IMG/VR virus record: IMGVR_UViG_3300029258_001506
Location: 20,036-84,035 of that record
DNA length: 64,000 nt
Reading direction: 5' to 3' (one strand)
Source: a virus
This document shows, in pieces, positions 22,261-22,560 of this stretch. Below the pieces are notes generated by a model. The model searched no databases, was not told where the DNA came from, and saw only the letters and a program-made list of their open reading frames with translations. Each line of letters starts with the position of its first letter. Position 1 is the first letter of the stretch. The position numbers and the translations under genes are program-made.

Positions 22261-22487
22261 TGCTGACGAAAGAACAGGCCGAGGAGATCGCCGAGCAGAT
22301 CAGAGACGAGCTGTCGCAGGCAGCGCAGAACACGCTCGATGATTACAACCAGACCGACGCGGACGCGATCGCCGATGCGTTGATCGAGTCGATCCGCGTG
22401 AACGGGCTCGACTGCTGTCGTACGAGACGTCGACCCCTGCCGCCAGCGCAGCGCGAACGATCCGTTCAAAGATCCGCGCCTTGCTGA
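22260..22487 (+). CDS. small acidic protein, extended by inverted insertion (native stop probably at 22416)
   Basis: SD GGAGGAG; removing 22417-22560 gives ...GLDC-TAA. Confidence 0.6.
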   Translation: MLTKEQAEEIAEQIRDELSQAAQNTLDDYNQTDADAIADALIESIRVNGLDCCRTRRRPLPPAQRERSVQRSAPC

Positions 22488-22560
22488 CGTCCTTATTGTA
22501 CGTGCTGTGCGCCTGCTTGAACCGCGAGAGCGCGTTCTTGATCCGGCCGACGTCGGCCGC
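22417..22560 (-). repeat. 144-bp inverted copy of part of head gene 51622-52596
   Basis: reverse complement identical to 51952-52021 (70 bp) and 52022-52059 (38 bp), separated by 36 bp (22455-22490) absent from the head gene. Confidence 0.95.

Follow-up and report, generated by a model that had tools for sequence, protein, structure and literature searches.

A recent inverted copy of a head-gene segment in the early region of an uncultivated phage, and its probable alteration by an assembly join

Introduction

Microhomology-mediated template switching has been described as events of the FoSTeS-MMBIR type and, in bacteria and phages, as strand switching of the quasipalindrome type. Amplification chimeras, too, typically have inverted joins with short microhomology, and palindromes are known as deletion hot spots and long inverted repeats as unstable. 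Phages moreover use antisense RNA regulators, such as OOP of lambda, sar of P22 and c4 of P1/P7. At intra-genome repeats, de Bruijn assemblers leave end sequences of maxK or maxK-1 length (COBRA, PMC10914622).

Here we analyse an inverted copy of part of a head gene in the early region of a phage represented in metagenomes. The window, i.e. the whole stretch of DNA analysed (64,000 nt), corresponds to bases 20036-84035 of an IMG/VR virus record that is 98,187 bp long and is assigned to the class with direct terminal repeats. Our main reading, with a probability of roughly 0.7, is that a recent insertion is real and that a mis-join by the assembler produced from it the '144-bp copy' and the '36-bp deletion' of this record.

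Results

Layout of the inverted repeat

Sequence comparison revealed that 22417-22560 is the reverse complement of 51952-52059 with 36 extra bp at 22455-22490. Both arms, i.e. 22417-22454 against 52022-52059 and 22491-22560 against 51952-52021, are 100% complementary, as had been stated in a preliminary description of this DNA made from its letters alone. The minus-strand reading of the early copy (...YNKDVSKARIFERIVRAALAAGV...) and that of the head gene (...YNKGAALAAGV...), which the same description had set against each other, were both confirmed, and the palindromes that it had located, TCGTACGA at 22418-22425 and a 16-mer at 22544-22559, are exact. Read on the minus strand, 22417..22560 encodes in-frame head-protein residues, including 12 conserved ones. 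It had further been claimed that removal of the 36 bp rebuilds a TAA for the ORF at 22260; this proved wrong, as the frame continues to a TGA nine codons on. In the contig as it stands, a TGA at 22485-22487, inside the 36-bp block, terminates the chimeric 75-aa ORF, the 22-aa tail of which is read from head-gene antisense. The features are listed in Table 1.

Table 1. Features of the early insertion locus and of the donor head gene (window positions)
Feature	Position	Strand	Remarks
Inverted head-gene copy	22417..22560	-	First 144 nt of the 218-nt insert that is complete in form B assemblies
36-bp block	22455..22490		12 minus-strand codons; absent from the head gene of this contig; ancestral head-gene sequence
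CTGT, real insertion point	22415..22418	+	Junction J1 at 22416/22417; in form B duplicated on the far side of the insert
Junction J3	22560..22561		Contig-specific; exactly 144 nt past the repeat entry
Chimeric ORF P0018, 75 aa	22260..22487	+	Native 53-aa early ORF, its stop displaced by the insert, plus 22-aa tail
Downstream early gene, 79-aa HTH_3-like protein	22578..22817	+	Same in all three forms
Head gene	51622..52596	+	324 aa here; 336 aa elsewhere (P0017)
Donor segment	51878..52059	+	218 nt in intact alleles, 182 nt here
36-bp gap	52021..52022		Exactly 144 nt past the repeat entry at 51878; without microhomology; the 36 bp are present in every other contig

Apart from this pair, a self-comparison of the whole 98-kb record found long exact repeats at its ends and in promoter cassettes alone. 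Eight copies of an A/T-rich cassette (approx. 105-128 nt, up to 99% alike) lie between the early gene blocks at 5961-25464 of the window, and the block that holds the inverted fragment is bounded by the copies at 21117 and 22828. At 33572-33886, a coding region contains a tandem array of about 20 units, which have a period of 15 nt and are 60-85% alike. A role of the direct repeat AAGCTACGGAGGA (22240, 22561) as a substrate for recombination in a cassette insertion was rejected, its two occurrences comparing with 1.5 expected by chance; in the native form of the locus, described below, it is seen to be simply a resemblance between two small neighbouring genes at their 3' ends.

The donor gene and its 12-residue segment

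The head gene is preceded by a gene for an XkdF-type prohead protease (50860-51621; Peptidase_S78_2, E 1e-14) and followed by a virion structural/capsid-like gene (52613-53551; phrog_1623, E 1e-73). Its product has a coiled-coil C-terminal part and gives a weak, sub-threshold match to DUF6582 across the repeated stretch; judging by its position, the gene may be scaffold-like. A protein search returned 15 relatives, and in all 14 that were aligned the 12-residue segment missing from this contig is kept (consensus SKARVYERIVRAAL), including a nearly invariant Arg. Such an alignment had been proposed in the preliminary description as a check on the conservation of the segment, and its outcome identifies the segment as ancestral: since the 12 residues occur in all homologues aligned, the ancestral sequence is that of the early inverted copy, and the derived state that of this contig's head gene.

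Exact-protein look-ups placed the 336-aa allele (P0017) in six contigs and the 324-aa allele (P0001) in this contig alone. One contig with the longer allele, L007, is 100.000% identical to the window over 10,400 + 10,575 nt (20,975 nt), the 36 bp being the sole difference. In runs X1, X2, X3 and X5, the contigs containing all 144 nt, with the 36 bp, continue into the head-gene flank. A 39.6-kb contig of X3 has head-gene flank on both sides of the block, and the X1/X2 contig with the block continues behind 22560 only. Loose ends of the head-gene flank on either side of the block were found in 4/4 runs.

Three forms of one phage

By exact-protein look-ups and in Logan contigs, the same phage was found in several sediment metagenomes and in metagenomes labelled 'seawater', which probably stem from one campaign, with some of the data filed twice; X1 and X2 yield identical contigs. 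Outside the two loci, the matching contigs agree with the window in every base, apart from the indel and mosaic sites given at the end of this section, and three forms of the locus can be distinguished among them.

The native form (form A) has no head-gene fragment. Four contigs (L011 from Logan, L012 and L018 from JGI, and L016 from ENA), all 100% identical to the window on either side, lead from 22418 through a 112-nt segment to 22560, and one contig of X3 likewise links 22418 to 22560 through 112 other letters. Here the ORF at 22260 ends in TGT|TGA after 53 aa, and the next 112 nt hold a 50-aa ORF with an overlapping TTG start and its end at 22599. This ORF (L011:2449-2601; replaced in the window at 22419-22559) is unannotated; its TTG overlaps the TGA of the 53-aa ORF (TGTTGA), its C-terminus (..ELDKLRRKL..) is similar to that of the 100-aa protein encoded upstream (..LADKLRRSE), and comparison with Pfam and PHROG gave no match.

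Form B is form A with a 218-bp inverted copy of head-gene segment 51878-52059, including the 36 bp, and with an intact head gene (336 aa). Over its 218 nt, the insert matches the intact head allele at 100% in reverse complement, from 52059 down to 51878. Its left junction, J1, is found together with the 36 bp in L004, L005 (JGI) and L006, and its right junction, J2, which reads ...CACCCT|GTTGACG..., together with the remaining insert and the native 112 nt in L010 and L013; L004 and L010 overlap by 64 nt, and the repeat measures exactly 218 nt. The real insertion point, 22418/22419, coincides exactly with the native stop codon of the ORF at 22260, which reads TGT|TGA in the insertion-free contigs. 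As a consequence, the 53-aa ORF is extended by the 22-aa antisense tail to the 75 aa of P0018 and is no longer coupled to the 50-aa ORF, which is itself still there behind the insert, together with the native 112 nt. In one sample, the J1 unitig had a depth of approx. 12.6, compared with 12-20 for its flanks.

Form C is the present contig only. Its early copy stops 144 nt into the repeat, and its head copy loses the 36 bp likewise 144 nt into the repeat. At J3, the fragment end at 22560 runs into AAGCTACGG..., so that, by comparison with form B, 189 nt are gone (74 nt of insert, GT, the 112-nt native segment and C). This junction was seen in none of L010, L013, L011, L012, L016 and L018. Of the structure given in the preliminary description, the right edge at 22560/22561 and the head gene without the 36 bp belong to this contig only. 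The form A and form B backgrounds differ from this contig by no SNP in more than 40 kb.

Variation was also noted elsewhere. L018 (JGI 3300029267) matches the window at 100% over approximately 20 kb, except for the fragment region and a 42-nt indel (16830-16871), whose nucleotides the window shares with L004 and L019 and L018 lacks; the indel has an ATGA stop/start overlap, by which two small early genes are split or fused. In L004, an ENA contig, the sequence upstream of window position 16685 is replaced (L004:1-430) by a module of lower GC content, as a result of which the gene at approx. 16.6 kb has another N-terminus. The module is similar to window 37921-38401, at 100% over 79 nt and at 93% over 256 nt. 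Both L019 and L004 break or switch exactly at 16685, which is either a mosaic junction or a second structural polymorphism.

Reality and origin of the insert

One possible explanation is that everything described here, including form B, arose as a chimera during library preparation or assembly, and that form A alone exists. Several of the runs seem to be the same data filed twice, and the inverted, microhomologous joins are of the kind that amplification produces. However, J1 and J2 were assembled base-for-base alike in two ENA assemblies and one JGI assembly; the JGI contig L019, from an additional sample, has its end precisely at 22418, where forms A and B branch; and the repeat block has approximately 1.5-2 times the depth of its flanks in X1/X2 and not in X3/X5, as expected of a true second copy. 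We regard a wholly artefactual origin as highly improbable. The inverted fragment is real, a polymorphic templated insertion in a natural phage population.

Donor identity within the same genome, microhomology at two junctions and an empty site, the features by which a templated insertion is recognised, were all found. The microhomology amounts to 2 nt at each form B junction (GT at J1, CT at J2), CTGT is duplicated, and its GT and CT halves match the donor flanks. The empty ancestral site is represented by L011, L012, L016, L018 and the X3 contig. As 2-nt matches at both junctions would arise by chance in only about 1 of 256 cases, a strand switch is favoured over the capture of a blunt fragment, and we infer that the insert results from two template switches, both of them primed by such 2-nt matches. 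Given that the copies do not differ and that no SNP separates the A and B backgrounds, the event is very recent.

In a clonal population, one lineage would have gained the 218-bp inverted head-gene copy, placed where a small early ORF has its stop codon. In the course of replication or repair, the GT of a nascent 3' end, ...CTGT, may have paired, at a distance of 29.5 kb, with the opposite strand of the head gene, from which 216 nt would have been copied; the terminal ...CT could then have re-paired with the original CT on the first template. Such a course would duplicate CTGT and leave the head gene unaltered.

Two other origins were considered and rejected. A diversity-generating retroelement or retron-like process does not suit copies that are 100% identical apart from the 36-bp block, with no adenine differences; among the genes called on other contigs around the insert, no reverse-transcriptase domain is recorded. 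An origin as a restriction fragment was suggested by GACGTC at both ends and at the edge of the 36 bp, but this motif occurs at 55 sites, compared with 64 expected, and the true ends of the insert miss the sites.

Form C and the assembly join

The early copy of this contig (22417-22560) and its head copy (51878-52021) both end 144 nt from the repeat entry, the repeat boundaries being set independently by the form B contigs. The terminal overlap of the record, its 'DTR', is likewise exactly 144 nt (genome positions 1-144 and 98044-98187); it is probably the assembler overlap of a circular or concatemeric assembly and no physical terminal repeat. Two form B contigs assembled with MEGAHIT at k141, L004 and L010, extend exactly 141 nt into the same repeat. 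As both breaks in the present contig lie one overlap length (144 nt) inside, the left sides of the two odd junctions are natural contig ends. Their right sides (22561 and 52022) have no overlap and no microhomology. To our knowledge, neither 144 nor 145 is a default of any common metagenome assembler.

Independent assemblies do not reproduce J3 and have J2 instead (L010, L013), and in the Logan contigs of four runs the sequence continues differently at 22560 and the 36 bp are kept. The absence of J3 and of the 36-bp deletion is judged here from contigs, in which rare variants are lost. Viral contigs scanned for exact matches to J3, the deletion junction and J1 gave no hit, nor did metagenome contigs scanned for J3 and the deletion junction; these blanks weigh little, as the record itself or near copies of it may be masked and as J1, present in the JGI contig L005, was blank in viral contigs too. 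A search with a 96-nt stretch around 52021/52022 recovered at most 2/9 sampled words in any run, including runs with 95-96% of the early region, which, for a weak search with few words, fits the absence of the deletion junction.

Another possible explanation is that form C is a real genome, descended from form B by two further deletions, one of 189 nt beside the early-copy palindrome and one of 36 bp within the head gene, which shortened both copies of an unstable 218-bp inverted repeat. The homology would thereby have been cut down to 38 + 70 bp, limiting lethal inversion. Forms C and B share J1 to the base, J3 lies 1 nt past the perfect 16-bp palindrome, the 36-bp loss is in frame, and the population has other small structural polymorphisms, such as the 42-nt indel. 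On the other hand, both breaks fall exactly 144 nt from the repeat entry, a distance equal to the terminal overlap, which we estimate would happen in two independent deletions with a probability of approx. (1/218)^2. The loss in the head gene, moreover, takes out residues that every aligned homologue has kept, no SNP distinguishes C from A and B, and P0001 is confined to this contig. We therefore consider it unlikely that form C exists as a genome.

Most likely, assembly errors account for both the size of '144 bp' and the '36 bp the head gene lacks', and the true genome behind the record is most likely form B. The assembler may have broken its contigs at the 218-bp inverted repeat, each incoming contig ending 144 nt inside, and a later join may have placed the next contig at a wrong offset, perhaps guided by paired-end distance estimates that were blurred by the mixture of forms A and B. 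Such a join would have cost the early copy 189 nt, including the native 50-aa ORF, and the head copy 36 bp, giving an apparent 12-aa deletion. It should be noted that the wrong offsets, 22561 and 52022, could not be derived from k-mer overlaps or from spurious end alignments. Template switching and an assembly chimera had been named as equally plausible origins in the preliminary description; both apply, each to a different part of the structure, the template switch to the insert, and the assembly error to the 144-bp edge and the loss of the 36 bp.

Antisense reading

The inverted fragment might also, along the lines suggested in the preliminary description, be a selected trans-antisense device, in which an early RNA acts against the head-gene mRNA and either delays late expression or hits co-infecting relatives with the intact allele. 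Its location within the early operon, on the transcribed strand, where a scan of 20900-23100 showed no terminator-like site, and the appreciable share of form B in at least one sample, evident from the J1 depth, speak for such a role. However, the fragment sits in a polycistronic early operon and has no promoter or terminator of its own (no promoter-like site in 20900-23100 and no terminator-like site on the + strand of the same interval); its landing site is a stop codon, and in this contig a small ORF is lost as well. The antisense RNA of form B would find a perfect target in the phage's own head gene, and the 36-bp difference that might separate self from non-self is probably artefactual. 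Relatives showed no homologous arrangement: DNA and protein searches of the GenBank phage collection gave no match, and a search of viral contigs for related loci returned no relative. Antisense regulation finds no support in a population in which a base-identical native phage lacks the element, and we judge a selected device to be very unlikely.

Even less probable is a form C that is both real and functional, its early antisense copy knocking down co-infecting relatives that carry the intact allele. If this were true, the phage's own head gene, minus its central 36 nt, would split the duplex into 38 + 70 nt and so partly escape its own antisense RNA, and a template-switch accident would have given rise to a phage-versus-phage RNA interference device.

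Since the insert lies within the early operon, 218 nt of the early transcript would be antisense to the head-gene mRNA, which we take to be a by-product of no selected function. The inverted fragment is most likely an ordinary structural variant and no regulatory device, and it opens no new question of regulation.

Discussion

The locus offers a natural snapshot of a phage genome acquiring scraps of its own DNA by microhomology-primed template switching, with the empty and the filled site coexisting in a population that is otherwise base-identical. It also calls for caution, as a viral contig classed as 'high-quality, DTR' may hide clean, in-frame errors at an internal inverted repeat, in this case most likely a head protein that wrongly appears to lack 12 aa, a small ORF that is missing and an insert that is cut off early.

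Among described systems, lambda OOP, P22 sar and P1/P7 c4 resemble the locus in that the early transcript would bear the complement of a gene expressed later. Unlike these regulators, the fragment has no dedicated promoter or terminator, is not conserved and is missing from the native phage, and it is complementary to an internal coding stretch and not to a ribosome-binding site, as a recent accidental insertion.

The insert also resembles microhomology-mediated template switching of the FoSTeS-MMBIR and quasipalindrome types, in the exact inverted copying of a sequence from the same genome, the 2 nt of microhomology per junction, the 4-nt target duplication and the empty site in the population. 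It differs in that the donor is 29.5 kb away and not in a nearby quasipalindrome, and in that it was met as a standing polymorphism of an uncultivated phage and not in a mutation assay.

Form C, in turn, resembles the repeat breaks of de Bruijn assemblies (COBRA, PMC10914622) in its change of path 144 nt into both copies and in the 144-nt terminal overlap of the record, and ends set by k = 141 occur in other contigs of the same phage; in contrast to such breaks, the pieces here were joined without Ns and at wrong offsets, which left what look like clean deletions.
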